Shown here in pieces: positions 2,111 through 23,233 of a DNA stretch of 64,000 nt (positions are counted from its first letter, which is position 1; each line of letters opens with the position of its first letter). The stretch covers positions 36,721 to 100,720 of the forward strand of contig SVGE01000004.1 in NCBI GenBank assembly GCA_015056545.1, read 5' to 3'. Below the pieces are notes generated by a model. That model was given only the letters and a program-made list of their open reading frames with translations. It did not search any database and had not been told where the DNA came from. This DNA is from Clostridiales bacterium. Lineage in GTDB: Bacteria > Bacillota > Clostridia > TANB77 > SIG350. Both the position numbers and the translations under genes were made by a program.

Positions 2111-3495
2111 TTCGTAGCCTCCTTTAATGGACATTTATTAATATTTTTGCAAGAATAGATACGTATCTTTTTACATTTTTCTGAATTCCAAACTTTTTCC
2201 CATTTATCTTGTAACATATTACCTAGTCCCGCTTCATTATTAAGCCAACTTTGGCATGGAACAATCTGTCCATCTGGTGCAATTGCCATATTACTTAAAC
2301 ATGCTCCACAAGAAGGAATATTCATTCCTAATTTTTTAAGTTCATACCCTTGTACCCAACCTGGTGATGTAAAGTCTATTTCCATTAAATTCTCATCTGT
2401 ATATTTTTTGGCTTTAATTAATATTTCTAATAATTCATTTTCTTTTAATTGTGTATCTTTTGACTCTTTATTTAAAGCATTCCCAGTTACTATTAATCCA
2501 GAACAAGTCACATATTTAATACCTAATTCATTTGCAAATTTTAAAGTTTCTTCATAATCTGAATTTAGTTTACAAAGTGGTGTATTAATACTAACATTTA
2601 AATTAGCTTTTACTGCATTTTTAATTCCTTCAACCGTTTTTTCAAAATTATTAGCACCAACTAGCTTGTTATGTATTTCTGGAATATTTGAATATAGAGT
2701 AACTTGAACACTATCTAAACTCGCATCATATAATTTTCTGCAAAGTTCTTCTGTTAATAATACTCCATTTGTATTAAGTCTAGTTATAAACCATTTAGAA
2801 TAATCTATTAATTCAACTAAATCTTCTCTTTTTGTAGGTTCTCCACCTGTAAATGTTAATTGTGGAATATAACTTACTTTGCATTTATCTATTACTTTTT
2901 TCCACTCTTCTGTAGACAACTCTTTCGTTTCAGCATAAACTTGACCTGCAGCATAACAATGTATACATTTTTGATTACAATTCCATATTCCATCCTTTTG
3001 CATAGAACTTATCATTAAATCCATTCTATGTGGTGCCAACATATTTTTAGAATATTTGCTTATAGATAATTGCCCTATATTTACTTTTACTTCTCTTCCT
3101 AGAGCAACATCAGATAATGTTCCAATTAAAATATCCAAATCTATAATAAATCTTTTCTTTTTTGTAAAACAATATATTTTAGACATTCTTATTGATATTT
3201 CTTTTTTTATTTTTTCTATCTCTTCTTGTGTAATTTCTTTTCCTTCATATTCATTAATTTTTTCAATGAACATTGAAAGCATAATAGTCCATGCTAAATT
3301 TATAGGAATAATGTCTTTTCCATTTAATATAACTAAACTAGGTTTAGTTTTTAATAAATTCAATTTAGCAGGAATTAAATGAATTCTTACAACACCTGGC
3401 TCATATGGATTTAATGTTGTATGTAATACTTTATTAAGATTTTTTCTACAATATAAATATTCACTAAGAGTCATATTCTTTCTCCTTTTCGACAT
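2107..3495 (-). CDS. radical SAM protein with C-terminal SPASM/twitch-type Cys cluster and ~170-aa N-terminal extension
   Basis: CNQKCIHC (CxxxCxxC) at about residue 175, GGEP motif (LTFTGGEPTK), and C-terminal CGAC...PC cysteine cluster. Confidence 0.75.
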   Translation of the reverse strand: MSKRRKNMTLSEYLYCRKNLNKVLHTTLNPYEPGVVRIHLIPAKLNLLKTKPSLVILNGKDIIPINLAWTIMLSMFIEKINEYEGKEITQEEIEKIKKEISIRMSKIYCFTKKKRFIIDLDILIGTLSDVALGREVKVNIGQLSISKYSKNMLAPHRMDLMISSMQKDGIWNCNQKCIHCYAAGQVYAETKELSTEEWKKVIDKCKVSYIPQLTFTGGEPTKREDLVELIDYSKWFITRLNTNGVLLTEELCRKLYDASLDSVQVTLYSNIPEIHNKLVGANNFEKTVEGIKNAVKANLNVSINTPLCKLNSDYEETLKFANELGIKYVTCSGLIVTGNALNKESKDTQLKENELLEILIKAKKYTDENLMEIDFTSPGWVQGYELKKLGMNIPSCGACLSNMAIAPDGQIVPCQSWLNNEAGLGNMLQDKWEKVWNSEKCKKIRIYSCKNINKCPLKEATK

Positions 3496-8157: not shown

Positions 8158-8324
8158 TTCACTCCTTAGGTAAATATATTACCACAAAATTAAATAAAAG
8201 TATATACAAAAAAAAGAAAAAATAGGCAAAAGTTCTCAAGTAAAATTGAGCAATTATTCTCATATAAAAAATAAAAAAATAAAAACACCTTTTTATGAAA
8301 AAAGTCCCGATCACCCACCCCAAA

Positions 8325-8348
8325 TAGTAAATACGGTACAGCTCTAAC
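8325..8348. repeat. 9-bp-stem hairpin at the module boundary (acggtacag-ctctaa-ctgtaccgt); paralogous copy at 21040-21060
   Basis: Perfect inverted repeat overlapping the stop codon of the small ORF. A near-identical hairpin and G-rich flank are present at the second module. Confidence 0.6.
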
Positions 8349-8736
8349 TGTACCGTATCCTCTCTTTCATTAAATATCCATATATTTCATTTATTTTATT
8401 TCGTTTAGTTATATATCTATTTGCTATATTATATATTTCATTATATTTATTTTTATAATTTTCTTCTAATTCTATATTATATTTATTACTTCTATCAATT
8501 ACCTTATAATTTATACATTTAGCTTCTAATCTACTAATTACCTTATTTAATGCTACTTCTGGAAAACCACAACTATTTATATTTCCTTCTACTTTTTTAA
8601 TCTGATAATTATACATATATGAAATTATCTGACTAGCATCTTTTCCATATACATTTAAGAATTTACCTACCCTTATCATTACTATATCTTCTTTATGTAA
8701 TTCTTTAATTATTCTTACTATATTTATTATTCCCAT
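8344..8736 (-). CDS. small protein resembling MutS mismatch-recognition domain I (stand-alone), encoded at the Avd-like position 3' of a DGR-target-like gene
   Basis: 130 aa. The stretch IVMIRVGKFLNVYGKDASQI...NSCGFPEVALNKVISRLEAKCINYKVI aligns with the GxFYE...DA...GxP...L core of MutS domain I. This is recalled from memory, not searched. Confidence 0.5.
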   Translation of the reverse strand: MGIINIVRIIKELHKEDIVMIRVGKFLNVYGKDASQIISYMYNYQIKKVEGNINSCGFPEVALNKVISRLEAKCINYKVIDRSNKYNIELEENYKNKYNEIYNIANRYITKRNKINEIYGYLMKERIRYS

Positions 8737-8926: not shown

Positions 8927-10195
8927 CTACTTTAATTCCCATGCTTTTTCTTCTGTTGTGCCTCCATCTGGTTCATCTATTACTTGGATATCAGAGCTTA
9001 GAGTAACTACTGGGCGCAAACCATACGCGCCTTCATTATCGTAGCCACTAGAAGTGAATACTTGGGTCCAGTTCAAGCCGCCTAAGTCCACACAGCGCAC
9101 AGCAAAGCAAGCCACATCACAGTCGAACCATATATCCACACAAGAAGAAGACAGCCAGTATTCACTGTTTCCAAAGTTTCCAAAGATTAAGTCCTTTTCT
9201 GTATCTGTCGCTACTGTTGCATCTGTTAAACTTGATTCTACATAACCATAAGAATTTGGAGCATATTCTCCTAGTTCTTTTCCTTCTTCTGGTACTTTTC
9301 TATTTGCTATTGTACTTACTCCTGTCGCTCCACTTGCTTCTAACTCTGCTATTGTTCTTACCCCTGCTGGTACATTATGACCTTCTTCATCTGTTCCAAA
9401 ATAGTCCCAGTTTATTTCGTTATCGCCCCATGTTCTGTCATCTTTTAATAGTTCATTTACATCTTCTATTTTTAAGTTTCTTCCTCCATATACTACTCTA
9501 CATATTTCATCTAATCTATCTGGACCGTATGCATATCCATTTGCTCCGCTTAGATATATATTCTCTACTGGTTCTGCACTTACTAATGTTACTGTATTTT
9601 CATCTTTTTTTAATACTCTCCACATTATATCTTGGTATCCTATTTCATAGCTTGCTGTAGAATAAAGCTTTTTATATATCCATTCTCTTTCATCTTCTGA
9701 TACTGTATATGTTCCTTGTTTCTCTTCTGGTATATTATAATTCACATAATGTCCTACTTGTAACTTTTTTACTACTGAATTTTCTGGTATTGCTCCTTTT
9801 CCTATTCCTAATTCTGCTAACCATATGTTATATGGGTCTTCAGTTCTTGTTCCTAATACTATCTCTCCATTACTTATTGCTATTAAGTCTTTATATTCTT
9901 CTTTTAATTCGGGGATTATTTCTTTTATTTTTTCATATTCTGTTTCATTATATAATCCACCTTCTCCATTTCCGGTTGCTAATTCTATTTGTTTTTCTGC
10001 ATTCTTTACTGCTAGTATTTCTTGATATGTTCGTATATCGCTTTTAAATACTGCTTCTTTTGCCTTCTCTATTATTCCACCTTCCATAAAAGTTACAATA
10101 ACTGCTGCTGTTAATATTATTAGCACAATTATTGTTACGATTAAAGCAACTAGCGATATACCTGATGTTTTTTTACTATTCTTTAAATTTTTCAT
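8927..10195 (-). CDS. pilin-like N-terminally anchored protein with C-terminal CLec-fold-like hypervariable region (putative DGR target), copy 1
   Basis: AGGAGG RBS. N-terminus MKNLKNSKKTSG-ISLVALIVTIIVLIIL (basic leader, Gly, hydrophobic helix). YWLSSS, then a ~117-nt variable segment, then YGLRPVVTLSS. The first 115 aa are 95% identical to the paralog at 21524-22747. Confidence 0.7.
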   Translation of the reverse strand: MKNLKNSKKTSGISLVALIVTIIVLIILTAAVIVTFMEGGIIEKAKEAVFKSDIRTYQEILAVKNAEKQIELATGNGEGGLYNETEYEKIKEIIPELKEEYKDLIAISNGEIVLGTRTEDPYNIWLAELGIGKGAIPENSVVKKLQVGHYVNYNIPEEKQGTYTVSEDEREWIYKKLYSTASYEIGYQDIMWRVLKKDENTVTLVSAEPVENIYLSGANGYAYGPDRLDEICRVVYGGRNLKIEDVNELLKDDRTWGDNEINWDYFGTDEEGHNVPAGVRTIAELEASGATGVSTIANRKVPEEGKELGEYAPNSYGYVESSLTDATVATDTEKDLIFGNFGNSEYWLSSSCVDIWFDCDVACFAVRCVDLGGLNWTQVFTSSGYDNEGAYGLRPVVTLSSDIQVIDEPDGGTTEEKAWELK

Positions 10196-10467
10196 AATCT
10201 CTTCTCCTCCTTAAAATTTAATCTTTTGTTATTACACAATTTTATTGTATAACACTTTCAGTTTTACTTTAACTGTTTCGTTGTAGTTTTTTGTTTTTTA
10301 TTACCTCCTTCCTCGGCTCTTTTTATTTTATTATTACCAAAATATATTTTTATATAATTTGGCAAACTAAAAGAACCTAAGACTACATTACGTTTTCTCG
10401 TAATATATTCTTAAGTTCTTTGCAAAAATTGGCATGTCAATTAAAGATGTTTTTATACTATAAACAT

Positions 10468-10477
10468 CCCCCCCCCC
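10468..10477. repeat. homopolymeric C10 tract (G10 on the coding strand) upstream of the copy-1 target gene
   Basis: Counted directly. The paralogous position in copy 2 has C8. It lies ~25 bp upstream of a TTGACA hexamer on the gene strand. Confidence 0.8.
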
Positions 10478-10654
10478 TAGTATTTAGCACTTTATGGCAT
10501 ATTGCTTTGGTTTTATTTGACATTTTCTTACACCTCTTTTCTTGTTTGTATACTATCATAGGCGTTTTAAAATTTCAATTGTTTTTTTGAAAAAAGGCTA
10601 AAAAATAATTAGAATACATTTTGTACTCTAATTATTTTCTTTATATATTTTTAC

Positions 10655-11410
10655 CTATTTAATTTTTTCAAAATAAATGTGTATATTAGACAATACTCCA
10701 TCATTAAAATAGAATTTTAACTCACTTCCATCTTCTCCATCAATATATGATGTTCCATATATTTTTTTAATTTCTTCTTCTGTTGTTACACCTACATGAA
10801 TATTACCTAATGAAGTACCTTCTGTTACATATACATTATGATAATATACTATATCACAATCATATATATTTTTAGGAGTATTTGAATTATTTTTTATTGC
10901 ACCATACCCAAAAGATAAATTAAAATTACAGTCAATAACAGTATTAGGCTCTACTATAATATTTTCTATTGCTTTTTCTTCTACGATATCTATAGTTTCA
11001 TATCCTAATAAATCTATATATTCTTGAGTATCTCTAACCAAACCAGATATTTCATCATTATTTATTTGATCTTTAATTGTTTGGTAATCTTTAACATCTA
11101 TCTCTTTTACTTCATTAAGTCTGCTAATACTTATTCCTAATTCTCTTGGTGTTTTTGTTAAGTCATAATCTACACCATCAATTGTAATAACACTAATATC
11201 TTTTTTACTTATTTTTTTATATTTATTTTCTTCTTCCAAAAATTCTTCATCTTCTAAATAATATCCATCATCATTTACATCATAATCATAATCATTATTA
11301 TCTTTATCATTATTGTTTGTTACAGCTTTAATAATACAAGCTACAACAAGAATTGCAAATATTGCTATCAATATTAATACTAACATTGTTATTCCATTTT
11401 TCTTTTTCAT
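10655..11410 (-). CDS. hypothetical membrane-anchored acidic protein
   Basis: N-terminal TM (ITMLVLILIAIFAILVVACII) followed by a D/E/N-rich region. Confidence 0.5.
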   Translation of the reverse strand: MKKKNGITMLVLILIAIFAILVVACIIKAVTNNNDKDNNDYDYDVNDDGYYLEDEEFLEEENKYKKISKKDISVITIDGVDYDLTKTPRELGISISRLNEVKEIDVKDYQTIKDQINNDEISGLVRDTQEYIDLLGYETIDIVEEKAIENIIVEPNTVIDCNFNLSFGYGAIKNNSNTPKNIYDCDIVYYHNVYVTEGTSLGNIHVGVTTEEEIKKIYGTSYIDGEDGSELKFYFNDGVLSNIHIYFEKIK

Positions 11411-11434
11411 ATCTTTTCTCCTTTTATATTAAAT

Positions 11435-12826
11435 TTATTTTTTCAAAAACTCTTTGTATCCTTTATATGCCATATAACAGTCATGTTTACTTGTAACTTC
11501 ATATGGTGAATGCATAGATAATACTGGAACACCACAGTCTATAACATCTGCACCTTTATCTGCAACTATATATGCGATAGTTCCGCCACCACCTTCATCA
11601 ACTTTTCCAAGTTCACCTGATTGGTATCTAACATTATTATCTTCAAATATTTTTCTAACATATGCAACATATTCTGCACATGCTTCACTTGAACCAGATT
11701 TTCCTCTAGCACCTGTATATTTTAATAAACAAATACCTTTTCCAATAAATGAACTATTTTTAGGATCTGATACTCCTGCAAATGTAGGGTCAAATGCAGC
11801 ATCTACATCTGATGATAACATTTTTGTATTTATATATAGCTTATTTAATAAATTATAACTTTCTTGTTTTAATTTAACAGCCATTTCCATTAACATGAAA
11901 TCTAATGTATTTGAACACATCCCAGTATTACCCATACTTCCTATTTCTTCTTTATCCATTAACATTGCAACACATGTTTTGTTTGGAATTTCAGTTAAAT
12001 CCATAATAGCTTTTGCTGAAGCAAATGAACATACCCTATCATCTTGACCATAACCAGCTATCATACTTTTATCAAAACCAACAAGTTTTGCTTCAAAGTT
12101 TGGTACTAATTCAAGTTCTGAACTTATGAAATCAGCTTCTGTTATTCCATATTTTTCATTTAATATTTTTAATATATTGTATTTTACTTTTTCATTAGCC
12201 TCTTTATCTTCACTTGGAATATTACCAACTAAAATATTTAAGTCTTCTCCTTCTATTCCTTCAGATAATTTCTTTTCCATTTGTCTTCTAGCTAAATGTG
12301 GTAATAAATCTGTTATAACAAAGATTGGATCATCTTTATCTTTACCAATAGATATTTCTACTTTTTCACCATTAGTTTTAATAATAACACCTCTTATTTC
12401 TAATGGAATAGTTACCCATTGATATTTTTTAATTCCACCATAATAGTGTGTTTTAAATAAAGCAAACCCTTCTGATTCATATAATGGATTTGGTTTTAAA
12501 TCTATTCTTGGTGAATCAATATGTGAACCTATTAAATTAATTCCTTTTTCTAATTGTTCATTACCGATAACTGCTAATAAAATATTTTTATCTCTGTTAA
12601 TATAATATACTTTATCACCTGGTTTTAAAGTTTTACATTTATCTAATTCTTTAAATCCTTGTTTTTTAGCTAATTTTTCAACATATTTAACACATTCTCT
12701 TTCTGTTTTACATTCATTTAAAAAATCAATATATTCGTTTGTATATCCATCTAATGTTTTCATTTCTTTTTTATTTAATGTATCCCAACCGCTTTTTCTA
12801 TTTAATAATAACTCGTCTTTTTTCAT
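11435..12826 (-). CDS. M18-family aminopeptidase
   Basis: 463 aa. GSHIDSPRIDLKPNP and the conserved metal-binding Asp/Glu/His pattern of M18/M42 peptidases. Confidence 0.75.
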   Translation of the reverse strand: MKKDELLLNRKSGWDTLNKKEMKTLDGYTNEYIDFLNECKTERECVKYVEKLAKKQGFKELDKCKTLKPGDKVYYINRDKNILLAVIGNEQLEKGINLIGSHIDSPRIDLKPNPLYESEGFALFKTHYYGGIKKYQWVTIPLEIRGVIIKTNGEKVEISIGKDKDDPIFVITDLLPHLARRQMEKKLSEGIEGEDLNILVGNIPSEDKEANEKVKYNILKILNEKYGITEADFISSELELVPNFEAKLVGFDKSMIAGYGQDDRVCSFASAKAIMDLTEIPNKTCVAMLMDKEEIGSMGNTGMCSNTLDFMLMEMAVKLKQESYNLLNKLYINTKMLSSDVDAAFDPTFAGVSDPKNSSFIGKGICLLKYTGARGKSGSSEACAEYVAYVRKIFEDNNVRYQSGELGKVDEGGGGTIAYIVADKGADVIDCGVPVLSMHSPYEVTSKHDCYMAYKGYKEFLKK

Positions 12827-20868: not shown

Positions 20869-21089
20869 TCCTTACAAAAATATTATACTATTAATATATA
20901 TTTTTTGCAAGTAGGAAAATATACTGTAACATTCACTTCATATATGTAAATTTTTAAAATATGAGTAAATATTGTAAACAAACAATTTACACGCTCAAAT
21001 TTTAAAAATCCCGACCACCCACCTCAGACATGTAATAAGGTACAGCTCTCACTGTACCTTATTCTCCCATGATAATTTTTTTTACCTGT

Positions 21090-21480
21090 TTAATTATTTT
21101 AAATTTTTCAGATTTCATATACTATTTTTTCTATTTCTACTATTTTACCATTGATTTCATCATTAGTTAGGTTTTCCAGCAAATATCCATATATTTCATT
21201 TACCTTATTTCGTTTTGTTATATATTTGTTTGCTACATTATATATTTCTTCATATTTATTTTTATAATCTTCGTCTATTTCTACATTATATTCATTACTT
21301 CTATCAATTACCCTATAATTTATTTTTTTATCTTCTATTCTACTAATTACCTTATTTAATACTGTTTCTGGTAAAACCTTTAGCTTTTACATTACCTTCA
21401 ATTTTTTTAATCTGCTTAAATTTACATATATGAAATTATCTGACTAGCATCTTTTCCATATACATATATAAATTTAACTC
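21090..21480 (-). pseudogene. decayed paralog of the MutS-domain-I-like small ORF (copy 2)
   Basis: DNA is ~80% similar to 8344-8736, with indels, a missing N-terminal segment and no ORF of at least 60 aa. Confidence 0.6.
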
Positions 21481-21523
21481 CTCTTACCTTTACTACGTCC
21501 GACGCCCCCCACGCGCTTTCGTC

Positions 21524-22747
21524 CTATTTTATTTCCCAGGCTGTTTCTTGTGTATCTCCTCCTGCTTCTTTATCTACTACTTGGATGCTAGAGCTTAGAG
21601 TAACTACAGGGCGCAAACCATACACGCCGTCGTTCTCGCCACCAATCGAAGTGTACAAGTAGTACGCGCCCACGCGGTCGCCGCCCACATTGCGCACATC
21701 GAAGTCCGCAACGTCGTCGTAGAAACGAACATAAGCGCAAGACGAAGACAGCCAGTAGTACTTATCTCTAAATATCATGTCTTTTGCTTTTTCACTCGCT
21801 TCTGTACATTCTGATTTATTATAGTAGTAATATAACTCTAATTCTTCATAATTGTCGGGTTTGCTCCAACCACTTACATCATATTCTTCCTCTGCTATTG
21901 CGTCTCCAAATGTAAACCCTATTTCTTTATTTACTTGATTATACTCTTCGTCATCATAACATGGCTCTGGTTCATATTTTAATACTTCATTTACATCTTC
22001 TACTCTTAAGTTCCTTCCTCCATATACTTCTGCACATATTGCATCTAATGCTCCTGGTCCTTTTGTAAATCCTTCTTCTCCATATAGGTATATATTTTCC
22101 ACTGGGTCTGCACTTACTAATGTTACTGTGCTGCCATTATTTTTTAGTACTCTCCACTTTATTTCTTCGTTATATCCTATTACTTCTTCTCCTTCAGTAT
22201 ATGACCAACTTTCATCTCCATCATTATATATCCAATTTGTTGCTTCTGCTCCCAGTTTTTCGGTTATATTATATGTCTTTCTTTCTCCTTCCGGTATACT
22301 ATATTTTACATAGTCTCCTTCTTCTAATAATCCTATATCTGATGTTTCTCCTTCTCCTATCCCTAATTCTGCTAACCATTCACTATATGGGTCATCAGTT
22401 CTTGTTCCTAATACTATTTCTCCATTACTTATTGCTATTAAATCCTTATATTCTTCTTTAAATTCGGGGATTATTTCTTTGATTTTTTCATATTCTGTTT
22501 CATTATATAATCCGCCTTCTCCATTTCCGGTTGCTAATTCTATTTGTTTTTCTGCATTCTTTACTGCTAGTATTTCTTGATATGTTCTTATATCACTTTT
22601 AAATACCGCTTCTTTTGCCTTCTCTATTATTCCACCTTCCATAAAAGTTACAATAACTGCTGCTGTTAATATTATTAATACAATTATTGTTACTATTAGT
22701 GCAACTAAGCTTATACCTGATGTTCTACTATTTCTTAAATTCTTCAT
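21524..22747 (-). CDS. pilin-like N-terminally anchored protein with C-terminal hypervariable region (putative DGR target), copy 2
   Basis: Paralog of 8927-10195. N-terminal 115 aa and C-terminal 30 aa are conserved. The variable segment 21624-21741 is ~58% GC and encodes DDVADFDVRNVGGDRVGA using NNC codons. Confidence 0.7.
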   Translation of the reverse strand: MKNLRNSRTSGISLVALIVTIIVLIILTAAVIVTFMEGGIIEKAKEAVFKSDIRTYQEILAVKNAEKQIELATGNGEGGLYNETEYEKIKEIIPEFKEEYKDLIAISNGEIVLGTRTDDPYSEWLAELGIGEGETSDIGLLEEGDYVKYSIPEGERKTYNITEKLGAEATNWIYNDGDESWSYTEGEEVIGYNEEIKWRVLKNNGSTVTLVSADPVENIYLYGEEGFTKGPGALDAICAEVYGGRNLRVEDVNEVLKYEPEPCYDDEEYNQVNKEIGFTFGDAIAEEEYDVSGWSKPDNYEELELYYYYNKSECTEASEKAKDMIFRDKYYWLSSSCAYVRFYDDVADFDVRNVGGDRVGAYYLYTSIGGENDGVYGLRPVVTLSSSIQVVDKEAGGDTQETAWEIK

Positions 22748-23020
22748 AATTTTTTCCTCCTTTGAATTTTAAATTTGTTATTACACAATTTTATTGTGTA
22801 ACACTTTTGGTTTAATTTCAACTGTTTTGTTGTAGTTTTTTTATTTTTCTTTTTACTACCTCCTTCCTCGGCTCTTTATTTTATTATTGCCAAAATATAT
22901 TTTTATATAATTGGGCAAAACAAAAGAACCTAAGACTACATTACGTTTTCTCGTAATATATTCTTAAGTTCTCTATATTTTTTGGCATGTCAATTAAAGA
23001 TGTCCTTATTCTATAGAACA

Positions 23021-23028
23021 CCCCCCCC
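23021..23028. repeat. homopolymeric C8 tract upstream of the copy-2 target gene
   Basis: Counted directly. The paralogous tract in copy 1 is C10. Confidence 0.8.
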
Positions 23029-23233
23029 TAGTATTTAGCACTTTCTGGCACTTTACTCTGGTTTTATTTGACATTTTCTTACACCTACTTTCTTGTTTGT
23101 AATATATCATAGGCATTTCATCTTTTCAATAGTTTAAATACAAATATATCTTTTATTTATCATATTTTTTCTTTACTATATGAATTATTCATGTTAAAAT
23201 TTTCTTGATAGAAAATATAAAGGAGGAAACTTT

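Follow-up and report, generated by a model that had tools for sequence, protein, structure and literature searches.

We analyzed 64,000 nt of the genome of a Clostridiales bacterium (GenBank assembly GCA_015056545.1, contig SVGE01000004.1, positions 36,721 to 100,720 of the forward strand), a stretch referred to below as the window, and focus here on the leaders of two paralogous genes, A and B, that encode pilin-like proteins on the minus strand. Each leader carries an uninterrupted run of G, and this tract is most likely a candidate slipped-strand hypermutable switch that lies in the transcribed leader and outside the promoter. We found that the tract sits inside a small upstream open reading frame (uORF) and that its length modulo 3 sets where the uORF stops, either ahead of or inside a terminator-like hairpin. 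The anatomy of the leader, its conservation and the polymorphism of the tract between samples are directly observed. On balance we lean towards a mechanism in which the ribosome would or would not block an intrinsic terminator according to a heritable frameshift in the leader peptide, which would join attenuation of the pyrBI type to slipped-strand mispairing.

The poly-G tract and the leader reading frame

On the gene strand (minus) the tract is G10 in copy A (C10 on the plus strand, 10468–10477) and G8 in copy B (C8 on the plus strand, 23021–23028), with the positions and lengths that the original prediction had given. These are the only runs of G or C longer than six in the 64-kb window, where the next longest is C6. 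The window has a GC content of 25.3%, with base frequencies of 0.156 for C and 0.097 for G, from which ~0.02 runs of eight or more are expected by chance; two are observed. C10 and C8 occupy homologous positions in the leaders of the two paralogs. The upstream homology noted earlier is real, although its extent and identity differ from the ~360 bp and ~90% first proposed: it reaches from the start codons out to ~10581 and ~23132, about 390 nt, at 86% identity excluding gaps. For comparison we aligned 12 distinct leaders from 12 different genomic neighborhoods, five of which were not found via a called uORF. An uninterrupted G8–G12 is present in all 12, a repeat long enough to slip (a homopolymer of ~7 or more).

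In copy A, the ribosome-binding site (RBS) of the uORF, AAGAGGTG (10531–10538, minus strand), can be read from the sequence 7 nt ahead of the ATG. As present in the window, with the G10 tract read AGG GGG GGG GG., this uORF is out of frame and has 21 codons, MSNKTKAICHKVLNTRGGGCL (10458–10523, minus strand), ending at the TAG at 10458–10460. The uORF of copy B (RBS at 23082–23088) is likewise out of frame with its G8 and has 22 codons, MSNKTRVKCQKVLNTRGGCSIE (23006–23074, minus strand), ending at the TAA at 23006–23008. With G9 or G12, the copy A frame would instead continue for 44–45 codons to a TAA at 10388–10390 in the 3′ strand of the hairpin, and the corresponding in-frame stop of copy B lies at 22941–22943, inside the terminator hairpin (both minus strand). 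The start region is strongly conserved: GAGGTG or AAGGTG stands 6–7 nt ahead of an invariant ATGTCAAAT in 12 of 12 leaders, and this spacing is kept despite an indel of 5–6 nt upstream of it in three of them. The uORF segment ahead of the tract is free of indels across the 12 leaders, and the tract itself supplies the codons AGG GGG GGG.

The relation between tract length and uORF length is strict. In all 12 leaders, 3n G gives a uORF of 44–47 codons, 3n+1 gives 21 codons and 3n+2 gives 22–23 codons, and the rule holds as well in the five leaders found otherwise than through a called uORF. The 3n uORF stops in the loop or the 3′ arm of a 22-bp hairpin in every leader, and in the window the out-of-frame stops fall 36 nt before the stem in copy A (G10) and 31 nt before it in copy B (G8). 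Two leaders are informative about what is being preserved. A 1-nt insertion ahead of the hairpin in leader L019 rewrites the C-terminus of the peptide completely, and a 1-nt insertion in the hairpin loop of L020 changes it; the stop is still inside the hairpin in both. Because these two leaders alter the C-terminus yet stop inside the hairpin, it is the stop position and not the peptide that is conserved, and we have moderate confidence, from sequence comparison, that the position of the stop matters rather than the sequence of the peptide.

The terminator-like 22-bp hairpin and its U run lie at 10364–10421 in copy A (ΔG −23.8 kcal/mol, z −7.7, a stability that none of 200 shuffled sequences reached) and at 22917–22974 in copy B (ΔG −23.9 kcal/mol, z −8.2), both on the minus strand. 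The hairpin is followed by UUUU(N)UUU; a U run is present in every leader and reaches 7 U's in L010. The opposite strand folds with only −16.3 kcal/mol, the hairpin being stronger on the sense strand because three of its pairs are G-U. Pairing is kept in 11 of 11 leaders, with U-A/U-G swaps. A simple terminator scan did not flag the hairpin in either copy, probably on account of the internal mismatch and the long stem. The gene in L010 begins 70 nt past the hairpin, and since promoter-like sequence is absent from that interval, transcription must pass through the hairpin there.

Just one promoter-like site is conserved across the 12 leaders, TTGAAA-17-TGnTAtatT, ~75 nt upstream of the tract. 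A promoter scan identified it as TTGAAA-17 nt-TAGTAT in copy A (10550–10578), at the 5′ edge of the homology, and as TTGAAA-17 nt-TATATT in copy B (23101–23129), both on the minus strand and both with a TG ahead of the −10. Its hexamers are conserved in the alignment and its spacer is variable; the homology among leaders starts exactly at this promoter, which directly follows the terminator of whichever gene precedes in the leaders examined in context. Because the conserved promoter is upstream of the tract, the tract is most likely transcribed, ~70 nt inside the transcript. The arrangement resembles a pyrBI-type attenuator in three respects: in 12 of 12 leaders the promoter is followed by an ORF that has an RBS and a start codon, a stable predicted terminator (hairpin and U run) lies between promoter and gene, and the ORF runs into this terminator, in 12 of 12 leaders, solely at 3n G.

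Tract length differs between samples

Comparison of the same locus in different samples revealed changes in the tract. The P0003 locus has G9 in JGI 3300018495 (L007) and G10 in 3300018878 and 3300018493 (L008 and L009). Over 5287 nt, L007 and L008/L009 align with 0 mismatches and a single 1-nt gap, which falls in the tract. At another locus of the family, L013 has G12 and L024 has G9; the 5138 nt compared contain 0 mismatches and a single 3-nt gap, again in the tract. Besides these two, three more loci display G9 versus G10 or G12, in the DNA or in called peptides. A 97%-identical strain (L012 / P0114) has G9 in the leader of locus A. The called peptides P0107 and P0124 are exact G9 translations of leaders seen as G10, and a single leader accounts for both P0117, its G9 form, and P0119, its G12 form. 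Differences of 1 and 3 nt between the consensus sequences of long contigs that match everywhere else are unlikely to represent sequencing noise. The proposal that the tract is a candidate for slippage-type phase variation is therefore supported by length polymorphism between otherwise identical ~5-kb DNA from different samples.

The distribution of frames among loci is uneven. For a small number of leaders, most assemblies show the in-frame form (10 contigs for P0108, 13 for P0123 and 8 for P0120); the loci that we located from their downstream protein (A, B, P0003, P0007 and L002) are mostly out of frame. This population pattern fits a contingency family. We also observed that several long contigs (L003 and L006) end inside the leader terminator hairpin; the repeated leader breaks assemblies, so that tract lengths will be hidden in many public assemblies.

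A proposed frame-dependent terminator and its alternatives

We propose the following sequence of events. Transcription would initiate at TTGAAA-17-TGnTAtatT, ~75 nt upstream of the tract, and the leader RNA would bear the uORF, with its RBS GAGGTG, its start ATGTCAAAT and the tract read as AGG GGG GGG. With G9 or G12, the uORF would extend to 44–47 codons, the ribosome would cross the 5′ arm and the loop of the hairpin and stop in the 3′ arm, and the hairpin, kept from forming at 3n G, would let RNA polymerase continue into the pilin-like gene (ON). With G8, G10 or G11, the ribosome would stop after 21–23 codons, 31–36 nt before the hairpin, so that the terminator would form and expression would be OFF or low. 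Copies A (G10) and B (G8) of the window would both be OFF under this frame rule. With a copy of the module at each of at least 20 family genes, cells could express different subsets of them. The transcription start, the terminator activity, the effect of the ribosome and the ON state are what we infer from the leader sequences.

Experiments in Escherichia coli offer a precedent for such a switch. In a synthetic construct, a stop codon 28 bp upstream of a terminator was brought to within 5 bp of it by the insertion of a single G, and termination fell from ~90% to <10%; for full termination, stop and terminator had to be more than 27 nt apart (PMC4824070). As in that construct, one G shifts the stop codon relative to the terminator; here the tract would do so naturally and reversibly. 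In pyrBI attenuation of E. coli, as the work of Roland et al. (1988) is cited in PMC5021804, a ribosome trailing the polymerase prevents termination. The leaders described here share with pyrBI a leader ORF that has its own RBS and extends into the hairpin of an intrinsic terminator, here a predicted one. They differ in the input, which for pyrBI is pausing that depends on uridine triphosphate and here would be a heritable, reversible frameshift, and in the host, a Firmicute in which coupling is uncertain.

Several considerations weigh against the mechanism we favor. We take 3n to be the ON state by analogy. Occlusion by the ribosome requires a ribosome close behind RNA polymerase; in Bacillus subtilis translation mostly lags behind transcription, and Firmicutes may couple the two poorly. 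The codons AGG GGG GGG, likely rare in a genome of 25% GC, could slow the ribosome. An open frame of 26 codons after the tract arises in 6% of shuffles, and two of the three frames are open through the 5′ arm of the hairpin, which makes the case of L019 weaker. Support from covariation is thin, the leaders being nearly identical, with double changes at 2 of 52 pairs. The in-frame leaders were found via called genes, which introduces an ascertainment bias. Nine same-locus pairs, 44,970 nt in total, differ by 1 single-nucleotide polymorphism and 2 tract indels, a tally that gives no unbiased rate since some of these pairs were displayed because they differ. Finally, in copy B another promoter-like site (TTGAAA-17-CACAAT, scoring 9 of 12) lies close to the gene and could drive expression independently of the leader terminator.

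The original prediction had placed the tract beside a TTGACA box, and a tract just upstream of a −35 box whose length alters the strength of the promoter, or the phasing of an upstream activator site, would be a familiar kind of switch. Switches of this kind are exemplified by Treponema pallidum tpr, Neisseria porA/opc and Bordetella fim. Poly-G within promoters is an established switch (PMC7864442), and TTGACA, a perfect −35 hexamer, does lie near the tract as predicted, 27 nt downstream of it on the gene strand in both copies (10440–10435 and 22993–22988), and is invariant in all 12 leaders. As a −35 box, however, TTGACA was rejected: a −10-like hexamer is absent at 16–18 nt downstream in both copies, and the promoter scan reports no promoter there in A or B. 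The hexamer instead falls inside the conserved in-frame uORF as the codons ATT GAC ATG (TTGACA(T), 10434–10440, minus strand). A promoter-type tract lies within or beside a functional −35/−10 pair, whereas the predicted promoter here, a better and position-conserved one, is upstream of the tract at the homology edge; nor would the strict relation between 3n tracts and uORF length have any role. The idea that the tract sits beside a TTGACA promoter is thus not borne out, and we consider a promoter effect improbable. TTGACAT is also the exact complement of the uORF start ATGTCAA. A helix between the two is predicted in the minimum-energy and consensus folds and both sides are invariant, but the 90-nt domain has a z of only −0.57 against shuffles, and we set this helix aside as an unexplained coincidence.

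Somewhat less improbable, though still doubtful, is a stand-alone phase-variable small gene, in which the 44-residue basic peptide is the product, the hairpin is its own terminator and the pilin-like gene has a separate downstream promoter. It would account for the 21 mutually similar in-frame peptide variants called in public assemblies, and copy B has the promoter-like site close to the gene mentioned above. It agrees poorly with L010, which has neither room nor signal for a second promoter, and with the putative downstream −35, which is among the least conserved parts of the leader. Substitutions after the tract keep the hairpin pairing and not the amino acids, the L019 peptide has a wholly changed C-terminus with its stop position retained, and the module is directly upstream of and co-oriented with a family gene in 12 of 12 cases. 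The frame-dependent uORF might also act post-transcriptionally, if translation through the duplex altered RNA processing or the stability of the leader mRNA and left termination alone. A near-perfect 22-bp duplex suffices for a double-strand RNase, and the leader contains a Shine-Dalgarno (SD)-like box lacking a start codon that resembles known 5′ stabilizers. This possibility, while unlikely, is the likeliest of the alternatives; the U run after the hairpin in every leader is nonetheless the signature of an intrinsic terminator and is unneeded for processing.

The tract might, lastly, have no regulatory role and reflect homopolymer errors of sequencing or assembly, or neutral slippage in a repeat homogenized by gene conversion. 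Homopolymers are error-prone, and the family leaders are repeated, with assemblies that break or join differently within them. Such an explanation is very hard to reconcile with consensus differences of 1 and 3 nt in long contigs identical elsewhere, with the retention of G8–G12 at all 12 or more leaders in a 25%-GC genome, compared with one G7 in 229 kb around 80 distant relatives, and with the precise frame relation of the tract to the stops and the hairpin. The mechanism we favor, better supported than a promoter switch, would be a uORF whose frame decides the fate of the terminator. Whether the whole qualifies as a "phase-variable attenuator" we regard as evenly balanced. In such an element, a heritable, reversible change of ±1 nt in poly-G would gate a terminator, the protein would never be frameshifted, the module would be copied before at least 20 genes in one lineage with combinatorial ON/OFF states, and a subset would be layered on C-termini of the type made by diversity-generating retroelements (DGRs).

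The downstream gene family and related switches

Gene A (8927–10195, minus strand) encodes a protein of 422 residues with a pilin-like hydrophobic N-terminus and a GC-rich C-terminus that resembles a DGR variable region (VR), and gene B (21524–22747, minus strand) encodes its paralog of 407 residues. Protein A has the same sequence as a hypothetical protein encoded in a "Clostridiales bacterium" metagenome-assembled genome (locus tags E7311_*). That genome contains more than 10 full-length paralogs of protein A and a larger set that shares only the first ~130 residues, several of them with leucine-rich repeats (LRRs). The leader module precedes at least 20 pilin-like genes, of which only some look like DGR targets. 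The N-terminus, MKNLKNSKKTSG-ISLVALIVTIIVLIIL, looks like a pilin signal followed by a helix, although support for this is weak; at the putative prepilin signal, ...TSG followed by ISLVALIVTIIVLIIL, position +5 is Ala and not the usual Glu. Searches of Pfam and NCBIfam gave no family match for the cargo proteins, and a family profile compared with the PDB matched pilin N-termini weakly (E 0.024–0.36).

The VR-like C-terminal segments (YWLSSSC...GLRPVV) of A, B and the P0003 gene are GC-rich, ~70% identical without gaps, and followed by GC-rich hairpins, a pattern that DGR variable regions would be expected to show. They lie at 8986–9160 and 21583–21757 of the window (minus strand) and at 3054–3228 of L007; other paralogs are AT-rich there. 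Switching had been suggested to act on top of DGR-type diversification, and this stands in part. A and B do have VR-like C-termini, but the same leader precedes LRR-type and other members that lack them. A DGR template repeat was not found in the window or in 24 related loci, and neither the window nor the related loci retrieved yielded a reverse transcriptase: no ORF in the window contains YxDD, and a Pfam scan of 10 neighboring ORFs near A and B identified none. In 17–20 assemblies the VR-bearing proteins do not differ at all, so that ongoing diversification is not visible in those data. A DGR context is thus plausible from the sequences of A and B and fails for some family members.

Further features adjoin these genes. 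Directly downstream of gene A is a 130-residue ORF with a match to MutS domain I (Pfam E 6e-9; 8344–8736, minus strand), and a disrupted copy, 86% identical to it, lies downstream of gene B (~21181–21495, minus strand). After each copy come a conserved hairpin, GGTACAG..CTGTACC, and the motif GGGTGGGTGrTCGGGA (~8305–8350 and ~21015–21060). The MutS-domain-I ORF might be part of a diversification system instead of mismatch repair. We also found that assemblies differ in the family gene that is attached to one and the same upstream context and leader (L001 versus L002, and L014 versus L015/L016), and in the 97%-identical strain (L012 compared with window 9803–11494) the locus A leader and N-terminus are fused to an LRR-type C-terminus. 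These swapped joins represent either recombination across the shared block of ~600 nt, composed of leader and N-terminal coding sequence, or assembly chimeras. A 133-nt direct repeat, 92% identical (L010 1581–1713 and 3325–3456), flanks the leader-plus-gene cassette of P0007, which hints that this cassette was inserted or duplicated as a unit.

The leader contains additional conserved elements. A small hairpin right after the tract (GAUGUUU...AAACAUC, 10446–10468, minus strand) holds both out-of-frame stops, TAG and TAA, in its loop and shows a compensatory U-A to C-G change between the paralogs. Past the terminator-like hairpin is a second one, UUGCCAAAU...AUUUUGGUAA (10334–10365, minus strand), with G-C/G-U variation. 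The purine-rich SD-like box, GAGCCGAGGAAGGAGGT (10303–10319, minus strand, and 22858–22874), is conserved 110–125 nt before the gene start with no start codon after it; we take it to resemble the 5′ mRNA stabilizer (STAB-SD) elements of Firmicutes. A third hairpin with a 10-bp stem, GTTAyACAAT-AAA-ATTGTrTAAT (10231–10253, minus strand, and 22780–22802), ~35 nt before the gene start codon, shows U-A/U-G/C-G and A-U/G-C covariation among leaders and overlaps the weak promoter-like site TTGAAA-17-CACAAT in copy B. At the other end of the leader, immediately before its promoter, an inverted repeat with a T run (10602–10638) directly follows a gene of 251 residues (10655–11410, minus strand) and is probably the terminator of that gene. 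In L002 and L010, too, a terminator is located at this point relative to the leader; the one in L002 belongs to ftsH.

The leader module appears confined to one lineage in the data at hand. The invariant 21-mer beside the tract was absent from the metagenome contigs scanned. A metagenome scan with the family alignment recovered 80 distant relatives in 229 kb, with leader motifs in none of them and one unrelated G7 run, and a scan of genome contigs with protein A gave one distant locus (L004), which has no G/C run of six or more. In-frame peptides occur only in assemblies containing the source organism, and the module was not found outside the source lineage in the collections scanned. Rfam, searched with the whole window at gathering thresholds and with 10100–10700 at E up to 10, returned nothing relevant (best 25 bits against a threshold of 48). 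A full-text search of the literature turned up no description of a terminator-linked repeat tract within a leader peptide or uORF.

Among contingency loci of the coding-region and multigene-family kinds, the tract resembles the slipped-strand loci of Neisseria (pilC and lgt) and the poly-G genes of Campylobacter in being an uninterrupted G8–12 that changes by ±1 or ±3 nt and acts through the reading frame, and the family resembles Neisseria opa and Mycoplasma gallisepticum vlhA in being a large surface-protein family with a tract for each member. Unlike coding-tract loci, however, it has its tract in a separate uORF of 21 to 47 codons, ~280 nt before the gene, so that the protein itself is never frameshifted, and the host is an uncultured gut Clostridiales bacterium instead of a classical pathogen. 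A further parallel is Haemophilus influenzae lex2A, whose reading frame governs expression of the downstream gene. There too the repeats, which are tetranucleotides, lie in a small upstream ORF, lex2A, and lex2B is a glycosyltransferase (PMC3116884). The lex2 cistrons are adjacent or overlapping, with polarity or coupling between them, whereas the uORF described here, which overlaps a terminator hairpin, ends ~190 nt short of the gene. Variable poly-G of 8–10 nt also occurs upstream of the surface-protein family genes T. pallidum tprE/G/J/L and tp0126 and N. meningitidis porA and opc (PMC7864442). For those genes, the run is in or next to a mapped promoter and acts via spacing, whereas here the predicted promoter is upstream of the tract and it is the length modulo 3 that is relevant. 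A parallel within Clostridia is phase variation of the surface protein CwpV in Clostridioides difficile, which acts after initiation: the promoter is upstream of the switch, and an intrinsic terminator in the leader was proposed for the OFF state (PMC2784873). The cwpV switch is a recombinase-mediated DNA inversion; in the present leaders an invertible segment is absent, the terminator sequence is constant and the reach of the ribosome changes.

Phase variation by repeat slippage is textbook biology and is described as acting in the promoter or in the coding sequence that is regulated. If true, the mechanism proposed here would add a third route, in which the repeat lies in an upstream mini-ORF whose frame gates a terminator; slipped-strand mispairing would be joined to attenuation by ribosome occlusion, and the cargo protein would be intact in both states. 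It would also imply close coupling of transcription and translation in a Clostridial lineage. In practice, upstream homopolymers should be compared with small ORFs and terminators before they are named promoter switches. For the organism, the finding means that a commensal known from gut metagenomes carries a contingency family of at least 20 pilin-like surface proteins, and if some of its members are diversified by a DGR, both the protein displayed and its tip could vary.

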